Assembly (NCBI GenBank): GCA_963662515.1
Contig: OY759675.1
Coordinates: 1,733,473-1,797,472, forward strand
Direction: 5' to 3'
Length of the DNA stretch: 64,000 bases
DNA from: Sedimentisphaerales bacterium
Lineage (GTDB): Bacteria; Planctomycetota; Phycisphaerae; Sedimentisphaerales; SM23-30
Part shown: one piece after another, positions 9,395 through 25,992 of the stretch
Layout: each line of letters starts with the position of its first letter
How positions within the stretch are numbered: the stretch's first letter is position 1
Made by a program: the position numbers and the translations under genes
The notes under the pieces: model-generated
Told to the model about the DNA's origin: nothing
The model's database searches: none
The model's input: only the letters and a program-made list of their open reading frames with translations

Positions 9395-9529
9395 GCCTTA
9401 CTTTCTTAAACAGGTTCAGGACAGGCCGGGCGGAAATGGAATGATTGATCTTATAAATATAACCGATTTGTTTGTGATGCTTATTAAACAAGATAAATAC
9501 AAAACTTGTAATTAATACGAGAAAAAATA

Positions 9530-10603: not shown

Positions 10604-10685
10604 TCGTTTCCTGATTGCAGAACAATTGCCAACAGGTATAATTTGCTTTCTCTAAGCAACAGACTTATCAGCAGACTAAAATATA

Positions 10686-10729
10686 ACTCAGGTTGTTTAC
10701 TGTAATGAAACGGCCTGAGTCTTTTTATT
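10686..10729 (+). terminator. Possible terminator of the + strand operon (weak)
   Basis: ACTCAGG (10686-10692) pairs with CCTGAGT (10714-10720) across a 21-nt loop, followed by CTTTTTATT. It overlaps the 3' end of the convergent GGQ gene. Confidence 0.3.
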
Positions 10730-11195
10730 GTTCATTTGCTCCTGTTGCTGTAGCTGGACAGACATTTTTACCTCGTCGTTTGCGTCTTTGCTTTTGTTTG
10801 CGTATTTTATCTGACAGGCTTTGCTCTGGTGTCTTTATACCTTGCTCAATTTCCAGCAGTTCACACATTTTTCTACGGGCGAAAAACCTGTTCAGGGCCA
10901 GAGATCTTTCTTGTTGCATTTTGATGATCTTTCCGGAGGGTATGTGTCTGAGCTGGACGCAAGATGAGGTTTTATTGACCTTCTGGCCGCCAGGGCCGGA
11001 GCCTTTTATAAAAGACTCCTCCAGGTCGCCTTCTTTTAGCTGGCAATTTTTCATTCGGTCTTGCAGTTCAGCTGTTTTTTTCTCGCTGACACCAAAATTT
11101 ATTTTACTGCTCATATCGCTATTGTATCTTATTTGGCAACAGGTGCAATTATTCTTACCTGGTATTTTTGCCATTAATATATGCCAGCCAGACAA
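10725..11195 (-). CDS. Stand-alone class I release-factor (GGQ) domain protein, ArfB/YaeJ-like peptidyl-tRNA hydrolase
   Basis: It has GSGPGGQKVNKTSSCVQLRHIPSG (the GGQ loop) and a strongly basic C-terminal tail (KIRKQKQRRKRRGKN). The real start is probably the internal ATG at 11114 (MSSKINFG...). ORF 10693..11202(+) is an antisense shadow. Confidence 0.8.
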   Translation of the reverse strand: MSGWHILMAKIPGKNNCTCCQIRYNSDMSSKINFGVSEKKTAELQDRMKNCQLKEGDLEESFIKGSGPGGQKVNKTSSCVQLRHIPSGKIIKMQQERSLALNRFFARRKMCELLEIEQGIKTPEQSLSDKIRKQKQRRKRRGKNVCPATATGANEQ

Positions 11196-11436
11196 TGGTT
11201 AAGCCTGATCTGGTCCTATAATTAGCAAGACTCTGAATTATTATTTGTCTATGTTTTTTTAATATCATGCTTATCTGTCGATTTTTCAAGCACTTACGAG
11301 AGTATATTACCTATTTTATCAGCTTTTTTGCAAATCCTCCTTTTATATTTTACGATAAGAGTGTTGCAGGGAAGTGAAGTGTCCCGGCCTATGGAGAAAA
11401 AGAATAAAATTGTACGATTTTTAGGAGATAGATCAG

Positions 11437-11937
11437 ATGGTTGATCATGGTTCAAGTGCGACAAGTCTGGAAAACCGCAATGCCAGAGCTAAAGCTGGTT
11501 TATATTTAACCTTTGCCTTAGGTCAGGAAGAATTCGGTCTGGAAATACTCAAAGTTAAAGAAATAATTGGCTATCAGGATATAACCAGCGTACCTCAGAC
11601 ACCGATCGAGGTTAAAGGTGTAATAAACCTGCGTGGTCAGGTAATTCCTATTATTGACTTGCGGGTCAGGTTCGGCATGGAAGAAAAGGAAGTTACCGAG
11701 CAGACCTGTATCATCGTAGTTGAAGTCGAACTCGAAGGTAATAATACCCAGGTAGGTATTATTGTTGATAATGTTTCCGAAGTGCTTGATATTCAGGAAG
11801 CACAGATCGAACCGTCGCCAGAGTTTGGTAATCAGGTCAATACCGATTTTATTCTTGGTATGGGTAAGATTGGTGAAAATGTTAAGATTTTACTGGATAT
11901 CGATCAGGTTCTCGCCGGTACTCAATTCCTGAGATAG
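11437..11937 (+). CDS. cheW: Chemotaxis coupling protein CheW
   Basis: A CheW-like domain spans the whole length (FALGQEEFGLEILKVKEIIGYQDITSVPQTP..VKGVINLRGQVIPIIDLRVRFG). Confidence 0.88.
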   Translation: MVDHGSSATSLENRNARAKAGLYLTFALGQEEFGLEILKVKEIIGYQDITSVPQTPIEVKGVINLRGQVIPIIDLRVRFGMEEKEVTEQTCIIVVEVELEGNNTQVGIIVDNVSEVLDIQEAQIEPSPEFGNQVNTDFILGMGKIGENVKILLDIDQVLAGTQFLR

Positions 11938-11980
11938 TACGATTGTTTATACAATTTTGTATAAGATATAGTTTTATTCA

Positions 11981-12009
11981 AGGCAGGTCTTTTTGGCCTG
12001 CCTTTTTTC
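11981..12009 (+). terminator. Rho-independent terminator after cheW
   Basis: A GC-rich hairpin AGGCAGG-N-CCTGCCT is followed by TTTTTT. Confidence 0.7.
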
Positions 12010-12141
12010 TTAGCTCTATATCGATGGGCGGTCCATATCTCCGGCTTTACTACTATAATATACACTTATCGCAACCAAATATAAGTTGACAGTCTGTATC
12101 ATATTCATACAATTCAACCTTAATTATAGTTTATTAGACAG

Positions 12142-13827
12142 ATGAGTCTGCGATTGGAGTTTTTTATGTCTTGCAAACCGGAATTAAGCGATAATGGGCT
12201 TATTTCTCCTTTATGTATAACGCCAGAGCTTGACCGTGTCGGCGTATTGGCCCGTATGGAAAATTGGCTTTTGTTTTTCTTTCTATTGGGTATAGCTGCC
12301 CGCTGTATTCGTTATTTTCTGGCATTCCCTCTGTGGGAAGATGAATGCTTTGTTGCTGTTAGCGTATATAAGTGCAGTTATATGGAGCTGTTACAACCCC
12401 TTATCTATCATCAGGTAGCACCTGTTTTCTTTTTATGGCTGGGAAAGGCCTGTAGTGACATTTTAGGTTTTTCTGAGCTTTCATTGCGATTGCCGGCGTT
12501 TATTACCTCAATTGTCTCAATGTTCATTTTCTGGCGTATTTCCAGAAAGGTGCTTTCCGGCTCGGCAAGACTATTTGCGGTGGCACTTTTTTCAGTGTCC
12601 TATTCTAATATCCGCTATGCGGCAGAATATAAGCCTTACGGCATGGATATGTTCGTTTCGTTATTGCTTGTCTGGTTTCTTCTGGAATGGTTATTAGCTC
12701 CTCATAGAAGATGCTGGCTTATCGGTTTGATCTTATGGGTACCTCTGGCGATTGGCTTTTCATTCCCGGCAGTGTTTACCGCTGCTGCGGTTAGTCTGAT
12801 AGTTTTCTGCTCTCTGCTTAGCCAAAAGGGGCAAACCAGAGACTGGCAGCTCTGGTTGCTTTATAGCGTGATTTTCTCAGTTTCTTTCCTTGTTGCCTAT
12901 TTTTATTCTATAAAGCCGCAAATGGCCGCTGAACTTGGTTTTATGTCTGATTGCTGGGATGATACCTTTCCGCCCCATAACCCAATCAAAATGATATGGT
13001 GGATCATCACAACTCATACCGGCGAGAGTTTTTCCCATCCGGTTGGTGGCGAGAGATTTGGCAGTACCCTTACCGCTATTTTGATGTTTACTGGAATTGT
13101 TGCCCTGTTCAAAAACGCCAGAGGTAAGATAGCCTGGCTTTTACTTTTGCCTCTTCTTATAAATTTCGCCGCCGCTCTTGTGCAAAAATACCCTTATGGC
13201 GGTCATGTTAAGTTCTTCATGTATGCAGCCCCTATGATATATATCGTTAGTGGGCTTGGGGCGGCCACACTGCTTAACGGCCATGCCAGGCGGGCTTCGG
13301 CGGGTAATACCAGAAATACGGTTATTATTGTAATGTCACTTATTGCAACTATTGCTATTGCCTGTTCCGCTATTGATGTAGTCAAACCATATAAAAACAA
13401 GGCTGATCAGAGGATCAGGGCCTTTTCCCAGTGGTTCTGGTATAATGCTTCATTTGCTTCTGAGGCTTATTGTCTGAAAGAAGATATGGATGTAAGATTT
13501 TCTCAGGCTACCTGGACACAGCTTAGTTGGTCAGCCAGCTATCTTTGCAATCAGTATATCTACAGGCCAAAAAAGGTTGTTCGCGAGCCTTTCCCTGATA
13601 ATTTGTCACCTGAAGCTCTGAATAATGTTTATTTTGTCCACTATCATATGCCCGATTGTCCGGATTTTGACAATCAGAAATATGAACAGTGGATTAAAGA
13701 GACATCGGAAAAAATGGACTTTATTTCCAAAGACACTTTTCCGCTCGTAAGAAATGATAAACGAGAGAGGAGAGTTATCTGTGCCGATCAGATAGAAATA
13801 TTCAAATTCAGGAAGAAAGTTCAGTAA
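12142..13827 (+). CDS. Polytopic membrane protein, GT-C fold glycosyltransferase-like (GT39/ArnT-like)
   Basis: About 11 hydrophobic helices are predicted. An acidic motif sits after the first helix (PLWEDE), where GT-C enzymes carry their DE/DD motif, and there is a soluble tail of about 130 aa. The call rests on architecture only. Confidence 0.45.
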   Translation: MSLRLEFFMSCKPELSDNGLISPLCITPELDRVGVLARMENWLLFFFLLGIAARCIRYFLAFPLWEDECFVAVSVYKCSYMELLQPLIYHQVAPVFFLWLGKACSDILGFSELSLRLPAFITSIVSMFIFWRISRKVLSGSARLFAVALFSVSYSNIRYAAEYKPYGMDMFVSLLLVWFLLEWLLAPHRRCWLIGLILWVPLAIGFSFPAVFTAAAVSLIVFCSLLSQKGQTRDWQLWLLYSVIFSVSFLVAYFYSIKPQMAAELGFMSDCWDDTFPPHNPIKMIWWIITTHTGESFSHPVGGERFGSTLTAILMFTGIVALFKNARGKIAWLLLLPLLINFAAALVQKYPYGGHVKFFMYAAPMIYIVSGLGAATLLNGHARRASAGNTRNTVIIVMSLIATIAIACSAIDVVKPYKNKADQRIRAFSQWFWYNASFASEAYCLKEDMDVRFSQATWTQLSWSASYLCNQYIYRPKKVVREPFPDNLSPEALNNVYFVHYHMPDCPDFDNQKYEQWIKETSEKMDFISKDTFPLVRNDKRERRVICADQIEIFKFRKKVQ

Positions 13828-13882
13828 GAGCGAGCTTGTTGTTGCTTCCGAGCGAAGTGTCAGCTGGTTTGAGGTATGTAGC

Positions 13883-14455
13883 ATGGATAAAAAAAGGCTC
13901 AGAAAGACAATGAATAATGTCCTGGCCAGCTGTTCTGACAGACAGGTTGTTCAGTGGAGTGAGGCTGTTACCACGAATATTGTTTCTCTGAATTTTTATC
14001 GCTCTGCCAGGGTTATAATGACATTCCTTAGTATGGCAGGGGAGTATGATACCAGCCTTCTTATTGCTCAGGCATTAGCCGATGGTAAAACGGTAGTAGT
14101 TCCGCGAGTTAATTTTACTGATAAATCCATGGCTGCAGTAAAACTAAGCTCCCTCAAACAGGAAATGGTTATTGATCGCTATGGCCTGCGAAATCCTGCA
14201 GATAATATTGAAGTTGATCTCAGTGAGATAGACCTGATAATTGTGCCTGGGTTGGCGTTTGATACCAATGGGCACAGACTGGGGCGAGGCGGTGGTTTTT
14301 ATGATCGCTTTCTGAGCCGGGAACAAGTAAGTAATGCCGTTCGCTGTGCTGTGGCCTTTGAATTGCAGATAGTTGATAATATTCCCACTGATGAACATGA
14401 TGTGTTAATACCATTACTGGTGACCGAAAAAAGGGTAATAGAGTTTTCCCGCTGA
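13883..14455 (+). CDS. 5-formyltetrahydrofolate cyclo-ligase
   Basis: The family signature is present: VPGLAFDTNGHRLGRGGGFYDRFL. The 190-aa size is typical. Confidence 0.88.
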   Translation: MDKKRLRKTMNNVLASCSDRQVVQWSEAVTTNIVSLNFYRSARVIMTFLSMAGEYDTSLLIAQALADGKTVVVPRVNFTDKSMAAVKLSSLKQEMVIDRYGLRNPADNIEVDLSEIDLIIVPGLAFDTNGHRLGRGGGFYDRFLSREQVSNAVRCAVAFELQIVDNIPTDEHDVLIPLLVTEKRVIEFSR

Positions 14456-14463
14456 CTAATACG

Positions 14464-17055
14464 GTGAATCAGATGAAAATATCTCAACATGCAGATAAAA
14501 CTGAAAAGCTTTTTGGAATCCGGGCTGAAGATATTCATAAGTGGATCGATGGTTTTTTTGACCTGCAGAGTTTTGATGAGTTCATTGCCTCCGGTACAAC
14601 TGATGGTTATGACCCATATAGTCACCGCAAGTTTCGTCATTGCAAAGAAACGCTGGCAGACGCCATTGCTGAATTTGAAGGTAAATATACTCACGAGCAG
14701 ATAAAGTCGGTTTTTGAATGTCACTTGCAAGATGATTATAATGGTTATCTTCCCTGTCGCGAAGATTTCAAAAATGGTACTTTTACTGAAAGGTATCATG
14801 AAGCTGAAGAGCAGCTTGAAAATGAGAGGATACTCAGTGAACACGAGCTCAGTGAATACTTTAAAGGTAAATATTATGCTGGTAAAAAACAGCAGGCTCA
14901 AAGCTACTGGCTTTCTGGCTTTCATCTGAAAATTGCCCTGCCTATTCTGCTTAGTACAGCTCTGTTTATTATTGCCATTTTTGTGATCGTTATACCTCTT
15001 TCCCGTCAGAATCTGATGGAGTCTCGCAAAGTAATGTTAAAGGAGATGGTCAATACAGCACAGAGCCTTATAATGCATCAGATAGCCAGAGCTCAGGCTG
15101 GTGAGATATCTGAGCAGCAGGCCAGAGAGATTGCTGCCGCTGACATTAAGGCCTTGCACTATGGCACTGCCGGTAAAGATTATTTCTGGATAACTGATAC
15201 TCACCCGCGTATGATAATGCATCCTTATCTCCCCGAGCTTAACGGTCATGATCTCACTGATTATGTAGATAGTAAGGATAAAAGCCGCAAAAAACTCTTT
15301 GTCGAATTTGTCAAGCTCACTCAGAACAATCAGGGTGAAGGATACATGGAATATCTTTGGCAGTGGCAGGATAATCCAGACCTGCATGTGCCCAAATTAT
15401 CTTTTGTTCGCCTGATCCCCCAGTGGGGCTGGATTATCGGCACAGGTATGTATATTCACGATGTGGAACAGCAGATAAGTGCTATGACTATCAATCTCAT
15501 GTGGACTTTTCTGGTAATATCTGTTTTTCTCTTTGTTGTCGTACTTTATACCATTAGTCAGAGCCGTCGCATAGAAAATGAGAGATTGCAGGCTCAGACG
15601 GGGCTTATTGAGGCCAAAGAACGATATCGAGCTCTGGTCGAAGCCTCCAGTGAGGGCTATATTCTTATGCTCGAGGGTAAGAATATATTTTCCAACCTGG
15701 CTTTGCAAAGGATGCTCGGATATAGCGAAAAGGAGCTGGCCTGCGATGATATCTGGCAGAAATTACTGCCGGAAAACAAGGTTAATCTAGCCGCGGTCGA
15801 ACATCTGGCCGAGCTTAATGATGGCAGACGCTCAAGTTCTGAATTTGAGGCCCGGTTACAGAGTAAAAGCGGACTGCTTATCGATGTGATCATTAAAGCA
15901 GCCCGTATCTTCCTCTCTGAAAAAGATGGCCATGTTCTGACTATTCGCCGTATTACAGCTGAGAATCTTGCCAGTCAGATATCTGGTTTTGATATTATCA
16001 GCAATTATGATCAGTTGCCCGCCGGGATAATTGAAGCTATAGAATCTGCTCAGAGCCAGGGCCATATTATACATAGTGTCAGCCAGGTACCTGCTATGGT
16101 TCGTTCCATGACAGTTAACGGCGTAAAATCGCCAGCTATCCGGCAGGCGATCTGTCGCATTTTTGATGCGGTTATGGTCAAATTCATTATTCTGGCCCTG
16201 CAAGAGATGCAAACTCAGGATGTCGATTTTGCCTTTGTCACTCTGGGTAGTAATGCCCGACAGGAAATGACCATGTTTTCCGATCAGGATAATGCTATTA
16301 TCTTTGACAATGTTGACAGCCGGAACCTCGAGCAGGTCAGAGGTATTTTCCTCCGCCTGGCTGATAAGGTATGCACTATGCTCGATAAAGCCGGGTATCC
16401 TTATTGCCCCGGCGGTATTATGGCGATCAATCCGCACTGGTGCCTGACTCTCGATGAATGGAAGGCTCGCTTTACTTCTGAGACTATAATGAACTTTGAA
16501 AAGTCAACCCTGGAGATCAATACCATATTTGATATCAGGTGTATTTATGGCAGCCAGTCTCTCACTGATGCCGCCCAGGCACACATGATGGCGGTTATTG
16601 ATGATAACCCGGAATTCTTTATTTATCTGACTCGCAATGCCCTGAATTATGATCTGCCTTTGAGTCTGCTCGGGCAGCTTCGTACCGAAACGATCGATGG
16701 CGAAGAATCGCTCAACATTAAAGACCCTATTGTGGCAATTGTGAATATTGCCAGAGTGTATGCCCTTAAAAACCGCATTAAAACGCCTGGTACTATCTCA
16801 AGACTGTCAGCTCTGCTGGAATTGGGGCAGATGAGCCAGGAACAATATGATGAGACAGTACAGGTTTTTAATCACCTCTGGTATCTGCGTTTCTATAATC
16901 AGATCATCTGTCATAGTAATCTCCGCCGGGTAAATGATGAACTCATAATCAGTAATCTCTCGGAAGCTCAGCAAGAGAATCTCAAAGAATCGCTGACCAG
17001 GATAAGCCTTCTCCAGACCAGATTAAGTTATGATATTCTGGGTATGGCTAATTGA
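14464..17055 (+). CDS. Membrane sensor protein: N-terminal cytoplasmic domain - TM - single Cache domain - TM - PAS - DUF294-type nucleotidyltransferase plus DUF294 C-terminal substrate-binding domain
   Basis: Cache signature: DYFWITDTHPRMIMHPYLPELNGHDL...GEGYMEYLWQW...WGWIIGTGMYIHDV, flanked by two hydrophobic helices. A PAS-like block follows (YRALVEASSEGYILML). The nucleotidyltransferase motif is FVTLGSNARQEMTMFSDQDNAIIF. Confidence 0.75.
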   Translation: MNQMKISQHADKTEKLFGIRAEDIHKWIDGFFDLQSFDEFIASGTTDGYDPYSHRKFRHCKETLADAIAEFEGKYTHEQIKSVFECHLQDDYNGYLPCREDFKNGTFTERYHEAEEQLENERILSEHELSEYFKGKYYAGKKQQAQSYWLSGFHLKIALPILLSTALFIIAIFVIVIPLSRQNLMESRKVMLKEMVNTAQSLIMHQIARAQAGEISEQQAREIAAADIKALHYGTAGKDYFWITDTHPRMIMHPYLPELNGHDLTDYVDSKDKSRKKLFVEFVKLTQNNQGEGYMEYLWQWQDNPDLHVPKLSFVRLIPQWGWIIGTGMYIHDVEQQISAMTINLMWTFLVISVFLFVVVLYTISQSRRIENERLQAQTGLIEAKERYRALVEASSEGYILMLEGKNIFSNLALQRMLGYSEKELACDDIWQKLLPENKVNLAAVEHLAELNDGRRSSSEFEARLQSKSGLLIDVIIKAARIFLSEKDGHVLTIRRITAENLASQISGFDIISNYDQLPAGIIEAIESAQSQGHIIHSVSQVPAMVRSMTVNGVKSPAIRQAICRIFDAVMVKFIILALQEMQTQDVDFAFVTLGSNARQEMTMFSDQDNAIIFDNVDSRNLEQVRGIFLRLADKVCTMLDKAGYPYCPGGIMAINPHWCLTLDEWKARFTSETIMNFEKSTLEINTIFDIRCIYGSQSLTDAAQAHMMAVIDDNPEFFIYLTRNALNYDLPLSLLGQLRTETIDGEESLNIKDPIVAIVNIARVYALKNRIKTPGTISRLSALLELGQMSQEQYDETVQVFNHLWYLRFYNQIICHSNLRRVNDELIISNLSEAQQENLKESLTRISLLQTRLSYDILGMAN

Positions 17056-17068
17056 TCATTCAGACATT

Positions 17069-17305
17069 TGTAACCGTTCACGGTACTTGCTTGGATTGCA
17101 AAGTCAACTGTGAGCTTAATTGCTTAGTAATAAGTAATAAGAAATACGAAATAAGAAATAAGCTCATGATTCTCGCTCCGCTCGAAGCTGTCTGATTTTT
17201 ATTGCAGACAAAGCCAGCTTAAATAAGCCTCGCCGAAGGCGAAACCTGAGATTATCAACTTATTCTTATATCTTATTACTTTTTATAACTGTGTGAACGC
17301 TTACA
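17069..17305. repeat. MITE-like foldback element (about 237 bp)
   Basis: The terminal inverted repeats are TGTAACCGTTCAC (17069-17081) and GTGAACGCTTACA (17293-17305), which match 12/13 as an inverted repeat. Inner inverted AT-rich repeats are AGTAATAAGA..ATAAGAA.TAAG (17133-17162) and CTTATTCTTATATCTTATTACT (17259-17280). Confidence 0.35.
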
Positions 17306-17518
17306 GGCATTTCAGTATTGTATTTGGGTAATTACCTGCCAGCTTTGTCCTGTCAGGACACATCTGTCATACTTTTTGTCAGTATAATTCTAATGAAATG
17401 GATTTTATCTGTTTTCAACTCGGAAAACCCCTTGCGTTAAGCAGAGACTGAATTTAATATAGCTCTAACTCAGGCCTGACACGCTATAAATATTGAAAAA
17501 AGTGATAGATTAGATTTA

Positions 17519-19666
17519 ATGGAGAATACTGCTATGCAGCGTTGTTTATCTGCAATTATAACAGCCGTTTTATTATGCTCTGCCTTTGCCGGGGCACAGG
17601 TTACCCGGTTCGTTGATGTCTTTGTCGGAACTCAGGGAGATCACGGCCAGTTACATCCGGGAGCTACAGTTCCTTTTGGTCTGGTGGTGCTTGGCCCTGA
17701 TACTGATGGCGGCTTACACACCGGCTATGATTATGCCAATGATAATATAAAGGGTTTTTCCCATACCAGAGTGCCTGGTGTCGGCTGCAGTGGGGCGGGC
17801 GAGACTTTGCGGGTTACTCCTTCGCTGGGTAAAAACCTTCGTGATACGATGGATAAGAAAACCGAGGCAGGCTGCCCCGGCTATTATACCGTTACGCTTG
17901 CCAGCGGCATTAAGGCCCGGCTAACCGCCTCGACCAGAGCCGGGTTCCACAGCTATTCGTTCCCGATATCAGATCAGGATATCAATATTCATTTCGATCC
18001 CAGTAAGAGTCTTTCGGGTATTAAAGAATATAACTGGCGGGTAGTTGATAATACTCTTATTACCGGTCTGGTAAAAGCCGGCAATGTCTGCGGACATGGT
18101 TACACTGTGCTGTATTATGCAGTAAGGCTCGAAACTCCGCTGCTGAGCTGGGAAGCTGCCGAGAAAGGACTGTGGTGTAATTTCGGCCGGGCAGATAAGC
18201 CGCGGATCATACAGCTAAAGGTCGGTCTCTCTCCGATCAGTGTCGAACAGGCCATTATTGAAGCTGATAATGATATGCCCGGCTGGGATTTCGAGGCAGC
18301 CTGCCGAAAGGCTGATGCGGCCTGGGAAACCGTGCTGGGTAAGGTTGATCTGGGAGTTGTTCCGGCTGAAATGGAAGAGTTCCGCAACCTTTTCTATACC
18401 TGCCTCTATCGCAGCTATCAGTATCCTAATAATGTTACTGCCAGTAACGGCCAGTATCGCATGGCCGGTGATGAAAACACTATTCGCCAGACGGCAGATA
18501 CCGCACCCGATTATGTTAACTATTCCGGCTGGAGCTCCTGGGATGATTTCCGCAAGTTCAGCCTTATAACTCTGCTCGAGCCGCAGATCGGCCATAATAT
18601 CGCCCGCTCGATCGTAGAATGGTTCGCCGGTGATTCATTTCCTCAATGGGGCAGCGGCTACTGGCCCTCAGCTACGGTTCGTCATGAATTCATCGGTGCT
18701 ATCGTCGTTGATGCCTTCTTTAAGGGGCTCAATGATTATGATCCGGAGATCGCCTATAAAGGTGTGAAGAACACTATAATGGGCAATGACCAGCTTGAGA
18801 AACCCTATCAGTATTATCTGGTAATGAAAATGGCCCGGGCTCTGGCCAAAGACAGCGAGGCAGCCGAATATGAACAAAAGGCGCAGGGTTACAAACAATA
18901 CTGGTGTGCTGAGCAGGTTGATGGCGAAGGTAATGTTCGCGGCTTTTTCACGAGCGATGGTCACAGCGTGCCCCGCGAAAAGGTAAATGAAACTAATGCT
19001 GTCTTTTATCAGGGCAATCTCTGGCATTATCGTTATTGGGTGCCGCACGATATAGATGGTCTGGCCAGATTGCGGGGCAGTAAAACGCTGCTGGCCGATG
19101 ATCTGGAATATTACTTTGCCAATTATCAGCATATACCCCATAATCAGCCGCCGCTGACCTGGCCGTATCTTTTCAATTATCTCGACCGCCCCTGGCGCAC
19201 GCAATACTGGAGCAGACATTTCCTCACTGAGCCCGTTACGGTCATTCACGAAAGCCGCGGTAAGTTTCGCACGCCTCTGTTTGAGCGGGTGATTAAAAAG
19301 TCGCCTGATGGCTATATGCTTACTATGGATGATGATGCCGGGTCCATGGCCAGTAACTTTGTATTCAGTGCGATGGGCCTTTATCCTGCCTGTATGGGTG
19401 AACCCTCTTTCGTCATCGGTTCGCCCTTATTCCCGCAAATGACTCTGACATTGACCGATGGTAAACAATTCAATATTATCGCACGCAACAGTACGCTGGC
19501 CAATAAGTACATCCAGAGTGCCACACTCAATGGTGAACCTTATGATCAATGCTGGATAAACTATAGCGATATTATCAAAGGCGGAACCCTGCAATTCGAG
19601 ATGGGACCAGTCCCCAATTTCGACTGGTCCTTACGCCGCCCCTTGCGCCGGGGGGGCGAGTCTTGA
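17519..19666 (+). CDS. Glycoside hydrolase family 92 (alpha-mannosidase-type), secreted
   Basis: It has a signal peptide (MQRCLSAIITAVLLCSAFAGAQ). GH92 N-terminal blocks are present (FVGTQGDHGQLHPGATVPFG, GFSHTRVPGVGCSG), as is the C-terminal block DDAGSMASNFVFSAMGLYPACMGEPSFVIGSPLF. The last 13 codons overlap a repeat module (see findings). Confidence 0.85.
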   Translation: MENTAMQRCLSAIITAVLLCSAFAGAQVTRFVDVFVGTQGDHGQLHPGATVPFGLVVLGPDTDGGLHTGYDYANDNIKGFSHTRVPGVGCSGAGETLRVTPSLGKNLRDTMDKKTEAGCPGYYTVTLASGIKARLTASTRAGFHSYSFPISDQDINIHFDPSKSLSGIKEYNWRVVDNTLITGLVKAGNVCGHGYTVLYYAVRLETPLLSWEAAEKGLWCNFGRADKPRIIQLKVGLSPISVEQAIIEADNDMPGWDFEAACRKADAAWETVLGKVDLGVVPAEMEEFRNLFYTCLYRSYQYPNNVTASNGQYRMAGDENTIRQTADTAPDYVNYSGWSSWDDFRKFSLITLLEPQIGHNIARSIVEWFAGDSFPQWGSGYWPSATVRHEFIGAIVVDAFFKGLNDYDPEIAYKGVKNTIMGNDQLEKPYQYYLVMKMARALAKDSEAAEYEQKAQGYKQYWCAEQVDGEGNVRGFFTSDGHSVPREKVNETNAVFYQGNLWHYRYWVPHDIDGLARLRGSKTLLADDLEYYFANYQHIPHNQPPLTWPYLFNYLDRPWRTQYWSRHFLTEPVTVIHESRGKFRTPLFERVIKKSPDGYMLTMDDDAGSMASNFVFSAMGLYPACMGEPSFVIGSPLFPQMTLTLTDGKQFNIIARNSTLANKYIQSATLNGEPYDQCWINYSDIIKGGTLQFEMGPVPNFDWSLRRPLRRGGES

Positions 19667-19689
19667 TCACTCTTGCCCTTCGTTGAGCG

Positions 19690-19733
19690 TTAAGTGCTGC
19701 TTGGGTTTTATGTTTCACACGGTACTATCTAAA
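19690..19733 (+). repeat. Repeat module C, copy 1 (44 bp)
   Basis: TTAAGTGCTGCTTGGGTTTTATGTTTCACACGGTACTATCTAAA is near-identical to 19914-19957. Confidence 0.85.
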
Positions 19734-19751
19734 CAGTAGCCACGGCAAGTT

Positions 19752-19883
19752 TCGCCCGTGCGGCGTAAGCACCGCCGGGGGGGCGAGACCAGGTAGCTCA
19801 AGCATCCTTGCTTGAGATTCTTTCCGGTTGTCGGTCTGCTCTGACAATAGCAGCCAGTGGCGGTCCTTACGCCGGACGGGCGA
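19752..19883 (+). repeat. Repeat module R1, forward copy
   Basis: ...CGCCCGTGCGGCGTAAGCAC...AGGTAGCTCAAGCATCCTTGCTTGAGATTCTTTCCGGTTGTCGGTCTGCTCTGACAATAGCAGCCAGTGGCGGTCCTTACGCCGGACGGGCGA is the reverse complement, with a few mismatches, of 21203-21298. Confidence 0.85.
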
Positions 19884-19913
19884 ATCATTATCACTCGCGC
19901 CCTCCGCGGGGTA

Positions 19914-19957
19914 TTAAGTGCTATTTGGGTTTTCTGTTTCACACGGTACTATCTAAA
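19914..19957 (+). repeat. Repeat module C, copy 2 (44 bp)
   Basis: TTAAGTGCTATTTGGGTTTTCTGTTTCACACGGTACTATCTAAA. Confidence 0.85.
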
Positions 19958-20170
19958 GACTTGCCGTGGCGACAGTTGAGATCAGGCTGGTTTTCTGTCT
20001 TAAAAATAATAGGTCTCATAGGTCCCATCGGTCCCATTCTTCCCGGCATCGAGATTGAACAATGCGACCTATGAGACAGATGCGACCTATGGGACCTATG
20101 TTTTCTTTTCCCTGCACCGAGATTGACCTAAGGGACCAATGTTGAAAAAAATAATTTTCGTGTGTTTCGT
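19958..20170 (+). repeat. Repeat module D, forward copy 1 (internally a hairpin of phased 9-mers; carries a roughly 40-bp extra insert)
   Basis: GACTTGCCGTGGCGACAGTTGAGATCAGGCTGGTTTTCTGTC...ATAGGTCTCATAGGTCCCATCGGTCCC...GACCTATGAGACAGATGCGACCTATGGGACC...AATAATTTTCGTGTGTTTCGTG. Confidence 0.85.
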
Positions 20171-20192
20171 GGTCCTTACGCCGGACGGGCGA

Positions 20193-20375
20193 GACTTGCC
20201 AGTGGCGACAGTTGAGATCAGGCTGGTTTTCTGTCTTTTAAAAAATAGGTCCCATAGGTCTCATCGGTCCCATTGGTCCCATTCTTCCCGGCATCGAGAT
20301 TGAACAATGCGACCTATGAGACACATGCGACCTATGGGACCAATGTTGAAAAAAATAATTTTCGTGTGTTTCGTG
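20193..20375 (+). repeat. Repeat module D, forward copy 2
   Basis: It is near-identical to 19958-20170 minus the insert. It is separated from copy 1 by the 22-bp tail motif GGTCCTTACGCCGGACGGGCGA (20171-20192). Confidence 0.85.
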
Positions 20376-20519
20376 TGATTCGTGGTTGAAAATCTTTCTT
20401 TCGATTTATGGTCCAATAAGTTTATTTTGGGGCGGATTAAATTTGAAATGTTTCGGGGCAAAGTGGTTTGGCGGTTTTCTTTTTGGGAATCTTATTTTTC
20501 CAGTTTGATTTGCCGTAAA

Positions 20520-20800
20520 GTGAATTTGAAAAACGATTTTGTAAATTGGAAAAACCGTTTTTCAAATTGGGAAAATCATTTTGTAAGTTTGAAAAATCAT
20601 TTTGTAAATTGGGAATGTCATTTTTCAAATTTGAAAAATGGTTTTGTAAATTTGATTTGTCGTTTTGTAAATTTGAAAAACGATTTTGTAAATTTGAAAA
20701 GTCATTTTGTAAATTTGAAAAATGATTTTGTAAATTTGAAAAATGGTTTTGTAAATTTGAAAAATGGTTTTGTAAATTTGAAAAATGGTTTTGTAAATTG
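20520..20800 (+). repeat. Tandem array: 13 complete copies plus 1 partial copy of a 21-bp AT-rich unit (consensus GTAAATTTGAAAAATGGTTTT)
   Basis: I counted unit boundaries every 21 nt from 20520. The copies at 20730, 20751 and 20772 are identical, and copies become progressively more diverged toward the left. One or two degenerate copies are likely at 20478-20519. Confidence 0.95.
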
Positions 20801-20863
20801 CAGTTATCGGAATTTGGATTTATTTTGCGGCGTTTTCAGTATTGAAAACGGCTGGAGCTACCA

Positions 20864-20887
20864 AAAACAGCCCTTTGGGGCTGTTTT
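20864..20887. terminator. Symmetric terminator-like hairpin in the unique core of the foldback
   Basis: AAAACAGCCC-TTTG-GGGCTGTTTT forms a 10-bp stem whose A-run/T-run ends make it symmetric and bidirectional. Confidence 0.45.
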
Positions 20888-20936
20888 AGAGCCGGTGAGC
20901 ATTGGAGCAGGGGAACAGGAGAGAGGAAAGAGCAAA

Positions 20937-21084
20937 ACATAGGTCCCATAGGTCACATGCGTCTCATAGGTCCCATTCTTCAATGCCGGTGCCGGGATTA
21001 TGGGACCGATGGGACCAATGGGACCAATGGGACCTATTCTTTAAAAGCCAGAAAACCAGCCTGCTCTCGATTGTCGCCACTGGC
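20937..21084 (-). repeat. Repeat module D, inverted copy
   Basis: The reverse complement reads GCCAGTGGCGACAATCGAGAGCAGGCTGGTTTTCTGGCTTTTAAAGAATAGGTCCCATTGGTCCCATTGGTCCCATCGGTCCCATAATCCCGGCACCGGCATTGAAGAATGGGACCTATGAGACGCATGTGACCTATGGGACCTATGTT, which is colinear with 20197-20345. Confidence 0.85.
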
Positions 21085-21201
21085 TGCATTTGTCAGAGCA
21101 GACTGACAATCGGGAAGAATCTCAAGTCCCGAAGCGAGTTCGGGATTTCGGAGTACCTCAACCGCTTGAGCTACCTTGTTCCGCCCGTCCGGCGTAAGGA
21201 C
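21076..21201 (-). repeat. Repeat module R1, inverted copy 1 (long variable hairpin)
   Basis: GCCACTGGCTGCATTTGTCAGAGCAGACTGACAATCGGGAAGAATCTCAAG-[TCCCGAAGCGAGTTCGGGATTTCGGAGTACCTCAACCG]-CTTGAGCTACCTTGTTCCGCCCGTCCGGCGTAAGGAC. Confidence 0.85.
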
Positions 21202-21202
21202 C

Positions 21203-21298
21203 GCCACTGGCTGCAATTGTCAGAGCAGACTGACAATCGGGAAGAATCTCAAGCAAGGATGCTTGAGCTACCTGGTTCCGCCCGTGCGGCGTAAGCAC
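21203..21298 (-). repeat. Repeat module R1, inverted copy 2 (short hairpin)
   Basis: GCCACTGGCTGCAATTGTCAGAGCAGACTGACAATCGGGAAGAATCTCAAGCAAGGATGCTTGAGCTACCTGGTTCCGCCCGTGCGGCGTAAGCAC. It ends 31 nt before the stop of the convergent gene. Confidence 0.85.
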
Positions 21299-21328
21299 AG
21301 GATTTGATAAACTTTATTTTTTGAGTTT

Positions 21329-23986
21329 TTATTCCGGCATGGGCACGATAAGATTCTCGGGTAATCTCAGTGGTCTGGGTGAATAAAAATATTCCAGTAC
21401 GGAAATGCCATCGCTTATGCCTTTGCATGACAGCGATGTAACTGTATAGCTCATAATTACGCTGTTGGTCAGGCATACTCCAGAGTTTTTAATTGTAAGA
21501 GCCAGAGAATAATTCTCTTCAAAGTCATTTTCCGACCCGGTGGGGTAATTGATTTCATCTTTTACCCCGATCAGCAGATTGGCATCAGACAGAGCCCCGG
21601 CCATTATTTTTTTTGCGTGACCGGCTATTCGCCAGGTACAGTTTTGTATCTCTCCACTTACAGAGGCGCTGGTCAGTGCTATCTGACCGGCAGCATTTTC
21701 CCCATCGAGGTTAATATCTGCTTCAAAATCGCTTTTACAGCTAAGGGTCTTGAGCCATTGGGCGTTGATCTGTGATGATCCGCCGGAGGTCAGCCAGCTG
21801 TTAACTTTTATACTGCTTATCGGCAGAGCCGGGCAAAGCAGGGCGGTATTGTTTATATTCGCTGCGGTGAGGCTGATGGCTGTTTTGGGGTTATCGCTGT
21901 TGCCGGCAATTGATATAACGGCATCTGATATGTTACCGATCATTAGTTTTGTCATTATGCCGCTCACTGTTATGTCGCCGGCCAGGTCGCACTTTTTGGC
22001 ATTAAGGTTGAACGATCCTTCGCAGTTGATATCTCCCAGAATGGTTGTCGCACCCCTGGTTTTGGTCGCTACGGTCAGGGTAGTTGCCGACGAGTTGCCG
22101 ATCAGGTTTATAGTGCTGCGATCCTGAGCTATTTCTCCCTGACCATCTTTCAGGCTGTACTGATTCAGAATACCATTATTATCTATGAGTGTCAGCCTGG
22201 CATTGTTGCGGCCGTTAAAGTTTCCAAATTTCCAGTTTATCTCCTGAACTCCGGCATTAAGCACATTGCTGTTGCTGCTTTCATCTGTCTCATCGATTGT
22301 ATTCTCATAGTCAAGCTGTGCCAGCAGATAGTAGCTACCCGCTTCTATATCTGAAGGAACAGTGTAAGAATACGAGTAGCGGCGGGCGGTTTTATTGTCA
22401 GCCGCCGGGAACTTTAATCGCAGAGCTCGCGGCGTCGTATAGAGCAGGGTATCATCCTGGCTAATATAAGCATCTGCTGAATAATATAACTTTATTCCCA
22501 TTTCGCCAGTCAGTGCCATATCACCATCATTCCTAAGCGTTATAGTGACTTTGCCTTTATCGCCCGGCAGTATCGCTTCCGGGAATTTTATTGCGGCCGC
22601 TGCTTCTCCGGCAATATCTATACCAGAAGGTATCTCAGACACTTCATAACAGCCGATATCAACGAACTTATAGATTATCCGTTCATTGCCGGCGAGGTCA
22701 TAGTTCAGTCCGGCACTAAGGCTGGTTTTGCCTGTATTAAAGCATTGTGAATCTGCGTTTATCTGATAGCTGCCGGACTGGTATAATTCTCCCTGCCATA
22801 TACCTGTTTGTTCAAACTGCGGATCAGTGTCCATATTGCCGCCCCGATTCCGGGCCAGTGAACCTGTTTGCAGATATACATATTCGTTATTAAAGCTTGG
22901 CTCCAGGCCTCCCTGAATAATATTGTGGACATATAACAATAATGAATTCTCGCCGGTTATAGCCATCTCACTATATTGGCCCTCATAACCGTACTGGTCC
23001 TGGCCGACCACATTATTATATATTATGCTGTTTGCCAGCAGCAGTTCGCTATTGGACAGCTTCGCTCCGCCCCCCTGGCTGTTAGTGCGATTTTCAGTTA
23101 TCGTACAATTGATTATCGTATTGTTTTCGGTGCCGCTGCTGAAGGGGCTATTGCCCAGATAAACACCTCCGCCATGACTGTCGGCATAATTTCCTGCTAT
23201 CAGGCTGCTGCTTAGTGTCAGGCCGCTCAGGGTGTCGCCATATAATGCCCCGCCAAAATTACCGGCATAATTACCGATAAAACTGCACCTGTCAATATAT
23301 ACGCCCATAGTATTATCTTCAAACGACAAAGCACCGCCATCGCCTCCCAGGTCATTATCTGAGCTTATATTGTCTGTGAAGCTGCATCCACTTATATTTA
23401 CGGCTATGTTGCCTGTTACCGATATTGCACCACCTGAGACCTCTGCCTGATTAAGATCGAAATCGCAATTGCTTATTAGTACTGCTGAACTGGAACCGCT
23501 TACAGCGACCGCTCCGCCGGTACTGACCGAATAACAACTCGAAAAGCTGCTCTCCTGTATATCAACCGCTGAGTTATTCACCAGAATTGCCCCGCCAATG
23601 GTGTTATAGCCGTTTTTGATAATTATCCGCTTCAGGGTTAACGATGCATTATTTGTGAGATTAAATGCCCGCATATATGACTGTGAGCTTCCTGTACAAT
23701 CTATTGTGACCGGGGCTGCATCATCCGGGCCTTCCGGCCGGATGGTTATAGCCAGACCGCTTATTTCTATATTTACATTACCCGCCGAAGAATAGCCGCC
23801 AGTTCGGGCTGCCAGCACGATCTCATCGCCATTTGTCGCTGCTTCTACCGCATCAGCTATGGTCGGGTAAGCCCCCGGCACATGCAATTCGGCTGCCCGG
23901 GAATAACCGACAGGTATTATAGATATTAAACATATAATCGCTAATAATTGCACAAATCCGACATAAGTTTTTTTTGTTTTTTCCAT
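21329..23986 (-). CDS. Secreted right-handed parallel beta-helix protein with PMP-like (GGA[ILV]) repeats and a CARDB-like domain
   Basis: It has a signal peptide (LLAIICLISIIPVGYSRA). Repeated GGAILV / GGAVAV / SGGAISV / GGALSF / GGALYG / HGGGVYL / GGGAKL motifs occur at roughly 25-30 aa spacing, with FxxN-type partners. A CARDB-like block is present (GKVTITLRNDGDMALTG). Confidence 0.7.
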   Translation of the reverse strand: MEKTKKTYVGFVQLLAIICLISIIPVGYSRAAELHVPGAYPTIADAVEAATNGDEIVLAARTGGYSSAGNVNIEISGLAITIRPEGPDDAAPVTIDCTGSSQSYMRAFNLTNNASLTLKRIIIKNGYNTIGGAILVNNSAVDIQESSFSSCYSVSTGGAVAVSGSSSAVLISNCDFDLNQAEVSGGAISVTGNIAVNISGCSFTDNISSDNDLGGDGGALSFEDNTMGVYIDRCSFIGNYAGNFGGALYGDTLSGLTLSSSLIAGNYADSHGGGVYLGNSPFSSGTENNTIINCTITENRTNSQGGGAKLSNSELLLANSIIYNNVVGQDQYGYEGQYSEMAITGENSLLLYVHNIIQGGLEPSFNNEYVYLQTGSLARNRGGNMDTDPQFEQTGIWQGELYQSGSYQINADSQCFNTGKTSLSAGLNYDLAGNERIIYKFVDIGCYEVSEIPSGIDIAGEAAAAIKFPEAILPGDKGKVTITLRNDGDMALTGEMGIKLYYSADAYISQDDTLLYTTPRALRLKFPAADNKTARRYSYSYTVPSDIEAGSYYLLAQLDYENTIDETDESSNSNVLNAGVQEINWKFGNFNGRNNARLTLIDNNGILNQYSLKDGQGEIAQDRSTINLIGNSSATTLTVATKTRGATTILGDINCEGSFNLNAKKCDLAGDITVSGIMTKLMIGNISDAVISIAGNSDNPKTAISLTAANINNTALLCPALPISSIKVNSWLTSGGSSQINAQWLKTLSCKSDFEADINLDGENAAGQIALTSASVSGEIQNCTWRIAGHAKKIMAGALSDANLLIGVKDEINYPTGSENDFEENYSLALTIKNSGVCLTNSVIMSYTVTSLSCKGISDGISVLEYFYSPRPLRLPENLIVPMPE

Positions 23987-24412
23987 CTGACTGCTCTTTC
24001 GTTTTGCTATTATTATCTCAAGTTATGAGAATAAAAGTCTTTATGGCTTTTAGCACTCTCTCTTTTAATCTTAGACCTTATCGGCCCGTTATTCAAGTCT
24101 TTTTTGAATCCTGTTTACTGTTCAGAGCACGCTTCTGCAGTTAGCTCCATAATTTTCTGCGATAGTTTTTACCGTTGTTAGTGAAGAAATCCGTACGAAC
24201 GGTAACCATAATTATGTTGATGAATAAATAATGCAAATAAGCGATTTTGTCTTGAATTGAACCATTAATCCGATTATTATCCTTATTGTTCTTGGTATAT
24301 TATTATAAAGCCCTTAATTCATAACTGTGTGTTCCATATCTGGTCTTTTTTTTGATCATTTATTGGTTTATGGCTGTTTTGTTAATTATATTTTTTTTAT
24401 AAGGATTATATT

Positions 24413-24835
24413 ATGGGAGATTATAGCTCTGGGCCTGCAACTTCTGTTTTTCTTACGGTTGGTTTGATCTTAATTCTGGTTATTCTGGTTAAGATCTTTT
24501 ATCTTATGGCTTTATCCCGGGCTTTACACTGCTGTTCGGCCCAGAATCGTAAGATATCGCCCGGCATGGTCTGGCTCGAAATTATTCCAGTTATTGGCTT
24601 TATCTGGGCTTTTGTTAATGTTATTCAGGTCTCTGGTTCTTTGGGGGCTGAATTTCGCAGTAGAGGGATCGAGCAGCAGGATAATCCTTCTATGGTACTG
24701 GGGATTGTTGCCTGTGCCCTTAATGTTGGCTCATCGGTCTTACCTTTTGCCGGTATTGCCGGGTTGATCTGCTGGATCATTTACTGGGTTAAAATTAACT
24801 CTTATGCTAATAGTTTACTCACTCAGGGTGAATGA
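24413..24835 (+). CDS. Small integral membrane protein (about 4 TM helices), unknown function
   Basis: The ORF has four hydrophobic segments. Its stop overlaps the annotated start of the next ORF. Confidence 0.5.
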   Translation: MGDYSSGPATSVFLTVGLILILVILVKIFYLMALSRALHCCSAQNRKISPGMVWLEIIPVIGFIWAFVNVIQVSGSLGAEFRSRGIEQQDNPSMVLGIVACALNVGSSVLPFAGIAGLICWIIYWVKINSYANSLLTQGE

Positions 24836-24960
24836 TAATTCCATATATTTATTACGCATTAGACCGTTTTTCGCTTACTAGCTTTCTTTTTTATGATTTT
24901 TCCTATCTTGTAAGCGCGAACGCATACCTGTTCCTTAATTTTCAGAAAGTGAGTGTTACG

Positions 24961-25704
24961 ATGGCAATTGAGCAAGAGTCTTATTCTCCTGTTTACAACC
25001 AGAGCGAGGTACTTTTCAGAGCTCGCAGTGCCATTACCGGCAGATACTGGTCTGTGGTTGGTTATATTTTGCTGGTCAACCTTATTATGGGTGTGTTAAG
25101 CAATATACCAGCTTGGGGATGGATTGCTTACTATTTATTGCAGGGTGCTTTTGAATTTGGTATCTCTCTGATCTTTCTTGCTCTTATTCGCTCGCAGAAT
25201 TCTGATTGTTCTATGCTTTTTTCTGGATTTAAAATTTTTGGTACTACTCTGGCCGCGTTTCTGCTCCGACTTATTTTTACGCTGCTCTGGATGCTCTTAT
25301 TGATAATCCCCGGCATAATCGCCTACTATCGTTATTCGCAGACCTTCTTTATTCTGGCTTCTGGCAGGCAGTCCGATCCAATGGAAGCGATAAATCATAG
25401 CATCAAAATGATGGATGGATATAAATGGTCTCTTTTTATGCTTGACCTGCATTTTACATTTCTTTCATTTCTCTTTCTGGTGCCAATAATAATATTGGCA
25501 TTTCTTGTGCCGCAGGGCCATTCTTCTTCAGTTGCCTTTTATGTTTTGATCACGCTTATGGTTTCATATTTCGTCTTTATCTTTTTCTGGCTCCAGCCTT
25601 ACTGGTTTGCGGCACATGCTGCCTTTTTTGACATGATTGCGGGGGGAGAACCGGTTTCAGATGATAATTCTTACCTTGAAACCTGTCAGGGCAATGATGT
25701 TTGA
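24961..25704 (+). CDS. DUF975-family integral membrane protein
   Basis: The block RARSAITGRYWSVVGYILLVNLIMG...LLQGAFEFGISLIFLALIR...FSGF matches the DUF975 layout. I prefer the internal ATG at 24961 (MAIEQESYSP) over the ORF-track start at 24832. Confidence 0.6.
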   Translation: MAIEQESYSPVYNQSEVLFRARSAITGRYWSVVGYILLVNLIMGVLSNIPAWGWIAYYLLQGAFEFGISLIFLALIRSQNSDCSMLFSGFKIFGTTLAAFLLRLIFTLLWMLLLIIPGIIAYYRYSQTFFILASGRQSDPMEAINHSIKMMDGYKWSLFMLDLHFTFLSFLFLVPIIILAFLVPQGHSSSVAFYVLITLMVSYFVFIFFWLQPYWFAAHAAFFDMIAGGEPVSDDNSYLETCQGNDV

Positions 25705-25992
25705 TGCTGACTGCTCCTGCCTGTTCTGCTTTTTTAAACCATCTGTTCTGTATAGCTTAATGTCAAGTTCAGAGCTTTTACTCAAATGATTTTCTGTGAG
25801 TTATTATTATTTTCATAGACACAGGCAGGGCGGAACTATATAATTTATAACTCTTTGTGTTTGTCGTTAATCTGGCGATACAAGAGAGCTGGTTTCCTGT
25901 TGGGTGTTTGGCTCTGCTGTTTTCAACTGAGCCCCGGCAGGATGATATGTTTTATAACTAATTGTATTTTAATAATTTAAGCAAGGGCAGGC

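Follow-up and report, generated by a model that had tools for sequence, protein, structure and literature searches.

Between two convergent genes of a 64,000-nucleotide stretch of contig OY759675.1 (hereafter the window), part of the 4,243,401-bp chromosome of a Sedimentisphaerales bacterium (Planctomycetota), lies a block of repeats arranged as a large imperfect palindrome. The block is bordered by a GH92 gene and, on the minus strand, by an 885-aa CARDB/PMP-repeat beta-helix gene. We consider it likely that this locus is a nest of non-autonomous hairpin repeats, similar to repetitive extragenic palindromes (REPs) and MITEs (miniature inverted-repeat transposable elements), which sits at a synteny breakpoint and has no function of its own. 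Relatives or the same chromosome hold further copies of every type of module in the block, and this reading accounts for all of its parts except the central 21-bp repeat array.

Layout and nesting of the repeat block

The stop codons of the GH92 gene (19666) and the beta-helix gene (21329) are 1662 bp apart, as compared to 121, 117 and 142 bp in the three remaining convergent gaps of the window. A first-pass annotation, made from the sequence alone, had called the gap unusually long and almost entirely repetitive, and both descriptions hold. A repeat search over 2.2 kb returned 13 direct-repeat families and 38 inverted pairs, among them R1(+) at 19773-19887 with R1(-) at 21177-21291 (115 nt, 90%) and D(+) at 20198-20282 with D(-) at 21000-21084 (85 nt, 89%), which pair as arms of the palindrome. 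Tandem Repeats Finder called a 21-bp array at 20523-20799 (13.2 copies), in addition to arrays of phased 9-mers. Within the locus, the R1 hairpin core occurs three times, the tail four to six times, the D 9-mers 12 times and the 21-mer 10 times, against shuffle expectations of 0.00-0.07 for these counts. Folding as single-stranded DNA, with z-scores relative to shuffled controls, gave values of -2.4 to -3.5 for the R1 copies, -4.6 and -7.9 for the D hairpins and -4.0 for the two-hairpin trailer. D is indeed a hairpin of phased 9-mers, and the centre does hold a 21-bp tandem array together with two hairpins (20831-20850 and 20863-20887), as had been proposed. The description of 19626-21298 as gene-free applies to most of the block, but its left end (19626-19666) coincides with the final 13 codons of the GH92 gene. 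Moreover, the tail, which had been counted as a separate module, is a 3' terminus that R1, C and D have in common.

The features of the block are listed below with window position and strand; labels such as L019 denote comparison loci.

19626..19660 (-): tail hairpin variant (GGTCCTTACGCCG, a 13-nt insertion and GGGGGCGA); left block edge, encoding the 13 final GH92 codons; synteny with L313 stops at 19630
19641..19772 (+): module C copy 1; inverted tails at both bounds, right end CGCCCGTGCGGCGTAAGCAC at 19753-19772; panhandle fold; homologues in L034 and L040
19773..19862 (-): inverted R1 copy; of the R1 hairpins, CTCAAG..CTTGAG and the terminal GC-rich one are clear, while the first is weakened in this copy by a substitution (TGTCAGAGCAGACCGACA); member of the 115-nt, 90% inverted pair
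19862..19883 (-): tail GGTCCTTACGCCGGACGGGCGA, identified as a motif match
19865..19970 (+): module C copy 2; 79% identity to copy 1, with the right-end GCC..GGC segment inverted
19966..20170 (+): D(+) copy 1; foldback with arms of phased 9-mers (TAGGTCCCA / TGGGACCTA) and a right extension
20171..20192 (-): tail plus GCCAGTGGC, which on the minus strand make up the minimal unit of ~40 nt, CTGTCGCCACTGGCAAGTCTCGCCCGTCCGGCGTAAGGACC
20198..20375 (+): D(+) copy 2; tandem duplicate of copy 1 at a spacing of 204-236 bp; left arm of the 85-nt inverted repeat enclosing the central unit; fold z = -4.6
20360..20386 (+): three phased 9-mers TTTCGTGTG ending in GTGGTT, half of a foldback arm, from a tandem-repeat call; counterparts are TTCATGGCC/TGCATGTTC/TTCATGGTG in L019 and TTCGTGTGG in L047
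20387..20522 (+): leader of the central unit; aligns to L019 and is contained in the paralogue P0122
20523..20799 (+): 21-bp tandem array of 13 units; unit a quasi-palindrome, TTTGAAAAAT-G-ATTTTGTAAA; units 2 and 5 inverted
20800..20933 (+): trailer; hairpin CGTTTTCAG-TA-TTGAAAACG (20831-20850); z = -4.0
20863-20887 (within the trailer): bidirectional terminator-like hairpin AAAAACAGCCC-TTTG-GGGCTGTTTT, from folding
20934..21084 (-): D(-), inverted D copy forming the right arm around the central unit; fold z = -7.9
21075..21201 (+): R1(-)a; CGCCACTGGC also present at the D(-) end; second-hairpin loop occupied by a nested 38-nt unit (21128-21165)
21202..21298 (+): R1(-)b; adjoins R1a with no gap; shortest of the complete R1 copies; z = -3.5

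The modules sit inside one another. A minimal unit of ~40 nt, CTGTCGCCACTGGCAAGTCTCGCCCGTCCGGCGTAAGGACC, forms two small hairpins, comes after D(+), on the minus strand, and is also found in relatives. R1 consists of this unit (GTCGCCACTGGC ... CGCCCGTSCGGCGTAAGSAC) holding an inserted body of ~85 nt, with the insertion point between GCCACTGGC and CGCCCGT. The loop of the CTCAAG/CTTGAG hairpin of R1a is occupied by the 38-nt unit, and the same 38-mer also resides in the loops of unrelated foldbacks on three contigs of one relative. Module C carries inverted tails at both ends, giving a panhandle fold, and D plus tail forms a tandem duplication.

The tail CGCCCGTSCGGCGTAAGSAC folds as GTSC(GGCGTAA)GSAC, with a 4-bp stem and a 7-nt loop. 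Its S positions covary, every element-like copy having either GTCC..GGAC or GTGC..GCAC; mixed combinations occur only in apparently coding matches, several of them with flanks conserved across genomes. This tail pair aside, none of 19 predicted R1 pairs showed a compensatory change, as judged on seven copies aligned over their full length, and the R1 hairpins are kept in relatives with G-U or loop changes. Covariation in the tail without compensation in R1 fits recent copies of DNA elements better than a selected RNA.

Copies and orthologous positions in other genomes

The tail 20-mer was scanned over 185,579 species genomes. One relative, the fragmented assembly JAFGDI01, contains 15 exact tail 20-mers on 11 contigs, up to three of them in tandem at a spacing of 115-118 bp, and three exact copies are present in OY763926.1, a complete 4.6-Mb relative. 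When the whole block was compared by BLAST to the tail-bearing loci, R1, module C and the 38-mer were recovered on several contigs. Many of the related repeat copies lie at contig ends.

The arrangement in the window could be compared directly to that at the orthologous position in a relative. Contig L313 (JAFGUW010000286.1) aligns by BLAST to window positions 8003-19630 at 83-87% nucleotide identity, with a common gene order of SDR, aldolase, RF-1, CheW, PMT_2, 5-FTHF cyclo-ligase, Cache-DUF294 and GH92 genes, and the alignment ends at 19630, at the first tail of the repeat block. In L313, a convergent UvrD-like gene that is missing from the window follows 60 bp past GH92, and there are no repeats. 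The GH92 C-terminus is AAGSESQPPSLSGLILNR in L313 and the repeat-encoded SLRRPLRRGGES in the window, where the repeats have overwritten ~18 codons at the 3' end of the gene. To the right, there is no synteny (with relative L314) before 25791, a position upstream of the S1 gene. The lineage-specific segment left in between, 19630-25790, begins with the repeat block on the left and also comprises the beta-helix gene, an ORF (open reading frame) of 140 aa and a DUF975 gene. The reverse case is found in the gap between the SDR and aldolase genes, where L313:1400-1800 holds a repeat cluster of ~330 bp (tail-like hairpins, an R1 hairpin, a foldback of the 7-mer AACCTTT and the hairpin CGTAATCGTGTGAACGATTACG), while the window counterpart (9400-9482) consists of ~80 bp of unrelated sequence with no repeats.

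This reciprocal presence and absence at two orthologous gaps, together with the dispersed families in relatives, the 38-nt unit in loops and the inverted tails bounding module C, argues for a cluster of nested MITEs, one of several origins that the first-pass annotation had listed. Another was a cis-acting chromosomal site for protein loading, partition or replication. Against such a site speak the lack of this arrangement at the orthologous position, the several copies of the central unit in the chromosome and a GC skew with no inflection at the locus; indeed, dispersed modules, a mere pile-up at this locus and an arrangement unconserved in a relative are what the annotation itself had named as refuting a functional reading. 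An oriC or terminus was likewise rejected, as cumulative GC skew climbs steadily through the locus.

Several further observations concern this neighbourhood. The blocks on either side of the segment 19630-25790 are syntenic with two relatives, neither of which has a counterpart of the segment itself. GC content is 0.37-0.41 at 24-26 kb and ~0.44 elsewhere in the window. For the 140-aa ORF and the DUF975 protein, the protein collection holds no relative of at least 90% identity, and the only cluster mate of the beta-helix protein is a 54-aa fragment on a short metagenome contig. The gap upstream of GH92 (17056-17518) measures 463 bp in the window and contains a 7-mer array, AATAAGA x 4.9, at 17129-17162; the stretch left unaligned there by BLAST is ~260 bp in the window and ~17 bp in L313. 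A 69%-identical GH92 homologue (L001) was discarded as a comparison locus, as it is not syntenic.

Short hairpins and foldbacks of related design were also seen more widely. Hairpin or inverted-repeat elements that terminate in exactly the 20-mer CGCCCGTCCGGCGTAAGGAC are present in more than one phylum (Planctomycetota, Acidobacteriota, Bacteroidota and Bacillota), with loci in Granulicella and other Acidobacteriota (L004, L005, L023, L026, L041, L045, L049), Lichenicola (L052), Rikenella/Rikenellaceae (L008, L021, L035, L051), Clostridiaceae (L002) and Bacteroidia (L013). In Acidobacteriota the 20-mer closes ~110-nt doublets (CCACTTCGTGGGGTG...CACCCCACGAAGTGG plus the 20-mer) resembling REPINs (REP doublets forming hairpins), whereas in gut Bacteroidota and Clostridiaceae another hairpin comes after it (CGCYGCCCGCGTAGGGCAG for Rikenella, CGCTCGCCGCGTAGGCGCG for Clostridiaceae); an Rfam search of the CGCCCGTCCGGCGTAAGGAC elements gave no match. 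Phased short tandem repeats of other sequence accompany tails in Sedimentisphaerales loci (L016:~780-860; L022:~3500-3560; L047:380-480 and 1240-1310), the repeat types being CACCTGCTC x4 plus AATTGTTCA x4, GTGCAAAG, CGCAAAG and TTCGTGTGG. The foldback arms in L047, L019 and L256 end in GTGGTT/AACCAC. Arm sequence varies by copy and periodicity is always kept, as is arm complementarity in the complete foldbacks (L047, L019).

The central unit and its 21-bp array

Window positions 20360-20933, comprising 9-mers, leader, array and trailer, align with L019:950-1560 of OY763926.1. The match takes in three phased 9-mers, the array and the hairpin, and in both sequences the hairpin TTTTCAG begins 45 nt past a GAAAAATG array core. 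The L019 copy resides in a 1.4-kb gene-free gap. In both genomes, the central unit is flanked by inverted phased 9-mer arrays, those in L019 being of different sequence (inverted arms of 47 nt, 81%). Two more copies of the central unit, P0122 and P0123, lie on the same chromosome as the window; since several reading frames are open across the array, both appear among the gene calls. P0122 has 95% identity to the ORF across the window array over all 186 aa, leader and trailer included, while P0123 has seven units and different flanks. The 186-aa ORF of the window is itself not among the entries of the protein collection, and exact-protein look-ups of the window GH92 and beta-helix proteins, P0001, P0122 and P0123 gave no match. 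The homologous array unit of OY763926.1 is situated immediately upstream of two Hachiman defence genes, for HamA and a DEAD-box helicase (L019:2013-5057), and another array (L288) adjoins a PIN-domain gene; arrays may favour variable or defence regions.

A metagenome scan for two adjacent cores (GAAAAATGRTTTT-N8-GAAAAATG) retrieved 91 loci, ~38 of which are true 21-, 42- or 63-bp arrays of 5-20 units each. They fall into at least 12 unit families on both AT-rich and GC-rich contigs, and their gene contexts take every orientation, with Hachiman HamA/HamB, PIN, kinase, KduI and SurA-like neighbours. One family from a lake metagenome, with a conserved leader of ~110 nt and a trailer of ~95 nt, is also a dispersed unit; its genomic contexts number at least three, and most copies are at the ends of contigs. 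In Bacteroidota-like contigs, many arrays are contained in a short called ORF that is located a little upstream of an fn3-like gene of 208 aa and is frequently preceded by a gene for a regulator binding cyclic nucleotide monophosphates. A fixed gene partner was nevertheless rejected, as neighbours are diverse and no 208-aa fn3-like gene stands beside the window or L019 copies.

The 208-aa family, which has an fn3-like C-terminus and no match to a Pfam, NCBIfam or PHROG family, is represented by L256:1245-1871, L237:334-957, L227:2-511, L232:1104-1598 and L304-L312. The called ORF preceding the gene is 98-180 aa long and spans a 21/42-bp array; most members are on very short contigs. In L256 (45-130 and 387-492), from a lake metagenome, a tRNA gene (recognised by eye) is followed by a phased 9-mer foldback (CACAGAGNN / CTCTGTGGTT) of the k-mer type of L019, after which come a 21-bp array and the 208-aa gene, so that k-mer foldbacks and 21-bp arrays also co-occur outside Planctomycetota.

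Foldbacks with phased k-mer arms accompany arrays in two Sedimentisphaerales genomes and one Bacteroidota-like contig. We tentatively raise the possibility, which we regard as unlikely, that the central unit belongs to an undescribed class of multi-copy cis elements, with the phased k-mer foldbacks as part of the same system. Such a class may extend over Planctomycetota and Bacteroidota-like contigs at least, and possibly other phyla. It would act through its phased palindromes, for example as a cooperative protein-binding array; for Bacteroidota-like contigs, an alternative is that the array may form a micro-gene of heptad repeats, hypervariable and coupled with the fn3-like 208-aa protein.

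It is quite unlikely, in our estimate, that only the flanking modules are selfish and the central unit is functional, its 13 phased quasi-palindromes cooperatively binding a dimeric protein in the manner of an iteron, centromere-like or regulatory array, with the foldback arms merely marking its borders. The 7-1-7 palindrome (GAAAAAT-N-ATTTTTC) and strict 21-bp phasing, equal to two helical turns, would suit such a role, as would the concentration of variation in the 13-unit window array at the palindrome centre, the conservation in L019 of leader, array and hairpin at the same 45-nt offset, and the recurrence of real arrays in the metagenome loci. However, neither the window copy nor that of L019 has a rep, par or regulator gene beside it, BLAST against plasmid and phage records gave no match, and the unit is multi-copy per genome, with a gene context in every orientation. 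In addition, unit number varies between copies encoding an identical 208-aa protein (1.5 units in L305, at least six in L306). Conservation of the core among the metagenome arrays is imposed by the search pattern, and in a test for binding-site selection, itself biased by retrieval, 14 arrays were nearly uniformly conserved over their 21 positions. A viral origin was rejected, as scans with the D 9-mer pair and the 21-mer gave unrelated single matches and no comparable arrays; some of these matches were in giant-virus contigs and probably reflect chance or coding repeats. An array of Bacteroidetes promoters (TAAATTTG plus TTTG in the 21-mer) was dismissed, the host belonging to Sedimentisphaerales.

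We consider it very improbable that the array is coding, with the 186-aa ORF (20382-20942) specifying a heptad-repeat protein, (FVNLKNG)n, akin to the small array-spanning ORFs upstream of the fn3-like 208-aa genes in Bacteroidota-like contigs. The frame is open, its paralogues have been called as genes and the period of 21 is a multiple of three. Moreover, the called 98-180-aa ORFs of L304, L305 and L307 start with a similar MK..F peptide and cross 21/42-bp arrays 18-35 nt upstream of the 208-aa gene, and an L.PAI motif is common to L305, L307 and family-1 copies. On the other hand, the homologous L019 array contains no ORF of 80 aa or more; the 186-aa ORF has no Pfam family, and its only homologues are the two same-genome paralogues. 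Its open frame (KNGF) differs from that of the Bacteroidota ORFs (KIIF), which in the window, by direct reading of the sequence, lacks an ATG leader and is interrupted by TGA at both inverted units. An in-frame TAG is present in one family-1 copy, and some GC-rich arrays have units of 20-22 bp that shift the frame. The first-pass statement that the gap holds no credible ORF needs amending, as this ORF crosses the array, yet it is unconserved as an ORF in the L019 homologue.

Equally remote is a locus for structured noncoding RNAs, as the first-pass annotation had also envisaged, in which R1 would be a three-hairpin RNA and the array a repeat RNA with a terminator-like end, in the style of a type III toxin-antitoxin system. 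The stable hairpins, the bidirectional terminator-like hairpin behind the array and the retention of the R1 hairpins in relatives are consistent with RNA. Against it stand the missing compensatory covariation of the seven R1 copies, the absence of a toxin-like gene downstream and the occurrence of copies in both orientations relative to their neighbours. There was also no Rfam match at permissive thresholds other than sub-threshold chance matches of microRNA models to the D hairpins (Rfam 15; none in the window at the gathering score), and a tRNA/tmRNA scan of the window found none. Promoter-like matches of the sigma-70 type reached only 9 of 12 positions, occurring once per 21-bp unit (TTGAAA-18-AAAAAT) and once at 20123, and no such match is conserved or lies upstream of the array.

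Proposed origin and comparison with known repeat systems

Returning to a nest of REP/MITE-like repeats, the elements probably spread as single-stranded hairpins. By analogy with REPs and their REP-associated tyrosine transposases (RAYTs), and with terminal inverted repeats and their associated tyrosine transposases (TIRYTs; PMC3733652), we infer that a trans-acting enzyme encoded elsewhere may act on the hairpins; alternatively, spread may involve template switching, or recombination at the hairpins. Further copies would preferentially land in or next to older ones, for example in loops or at ends, and such landing, combined with tandem duplication and one inverted duplication, could give rise to the palindromic layout. 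Convergent 3' ends would tolerate these insertions, and if the locus terminates transcription, protects mRNA 3' ends or has some other local effect, this would be a by-product.

A number of observations weigh against this explanation. None of the modules has a copy in the other 62 kb of the window, which indicates families that are clustered or modestly abundant rather than evenly spread, high-copy REPs. No transposase, target-site duplication or clean empty/filled-site pair for a single element was found, so that mobility is deduced from distribution only. The borders of D, L019 and GH92 show no visible duplication, their flanks being themselves repeats or too diverged, and a tblastn search with an IS200 TnpA query, a weak test, gave no match in the window or the genome loci examined. 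Leader, array and hairpin trailer are kept between genomes whose GH92 proteins are only 65% identical, and the palindromic core GAAAAAT-N-ATTTTTC recurs in many unrelated metagenome arrays; either observation could be a sign of function and not of selfish propagation. Finally, P0122 could in principle be the same locus in another assembly version, although its leader and trailer substitutions favour a paralogue.

If the nest is indeed of this kind, a tempting false lead is removed, since the giant palindrome would be neither an origin nor a centromere, nor would it be a conserved RNA locus. The locus would instead be a repeat graveyard edging a 6-kb lineage-specific segment, in which the end of a glycoside hydrolase gene has been rewritten. 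It adds to the repeat biology of an uncultured order of Planctomycetota, of which no description was found in the literature by sequence or keyword search (searches with the 21-mer core and tail sequence strings returned nothing relevant). The repeat types documented here are a ~40-nt two-hairpin unit that hosts inserts, a 38-nt unit that lands in loops, foldbacks with arms of phased 7-9-mers and a minisatellite-bearing unit. Clusters of this sort break short-read assemblies and mark rearrangement points, and they can be mistaken for functional sites or genes; two paralogous arrays are already in public gene calls. The 21-bp arrays of one palindromic core, common in metagenomes, and the 20-nt hairpin spanning four phyla are both worth a survey.

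The first-pass statement that the structure matches no described class of element was too strong, as the block behaves like clusters of MITEs or of REPs and bacterial interspersed mosaic elements (BIMEs), albeit outside the tagged REP families. In Proteobacteria, REP/BIME clusters and REPIN doublets are mobilised by RAYT tyrosine transposases (PMC3733652, PMC3116915), and tagged REP superfamilies bear a GTAG or CGTC tag, with 8-9-bp stems in the CGTC families (PMC3733652). Like these, the repeats described here are short GC-rich stem-loops that are extragenic, lie mainly past gene 3' ends and between convergent genes, form inverted dimers and mosaics with other motifs, occupy orthologous gaps variably and occasionally intrude into gene ends. 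The tail is a short imperfect palindrome in the 20-40-nt range of REPs, but it does not match a REP tag: GTAG is absent, and CGTC appears only in the C variant, overlapping the stem, the G variant reading CGTG. Further differences are an apparently modest and clustered copy number, no RAYT or TIRYT gene in the DNA examined, and the presence in the mosaic of k-mer-arm foldbacks and a minisatellite, features that BIMEs lack.

MITEs are matched by the non-coding units of ~100-900 bp with terminal inverted repeats (the tails of module C and the 85-nt arms of D-central-D), dispersed copies, insertion polymorphism and insertion into each other. No target-site duplication or parent insertion sequence (IS) with matching ends was identified, and the arms of the largest unit differ in being phased 9-mers and not IS-type ends.

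In Nostoc/Anabaena, Elhai et al. (Genome Research, 2008; cited in PMC3116915) reportedly described small dispersed repeats (SDRs) that lie within hairpin elements. The 38-nt unit in R1a and in unrelated foldbacks likewise is a tiny unit inside the loops of other repeats, and hairpin-forming short tandem repeats occur nearby, comparable to the heptamers of cyanobacterial short tandemly repeated repetitive (STRR) sequences; phylum and sequences differ, and here tandem k-mers make up both arms of a foldback. Long inverted arms of short tandem subrepeats around a non-coding loop also recall the eukaryotic Foldback (FB) transposons, by analogy only, since there is no common sequence or enzyme and the present elements are prokaryotic and far smaller.

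The array by itself resembles iterons and partition centromeres in its ~21-bp direct repeats of two helical turns, its long tandem arrangement and its internal dyad symmetry, but differs in having no adjacent rep or par gene, in being chromosomal and multi-copy, in lacking plasmid or phage similarity and in showing no skew inflection. It does not match a CRISPR array, with repeats of 23-47 nt and unique spacers, as its period is 21 bp and its units are head-to-tail with no unique spacers between them. Nor does it match the ToxI-like layout of type III toxin-antitoxin systems, as beyond the terminator-like hairpin lie D(-), a pair of R1 copies and a convergent gene with its 3' end towards them.

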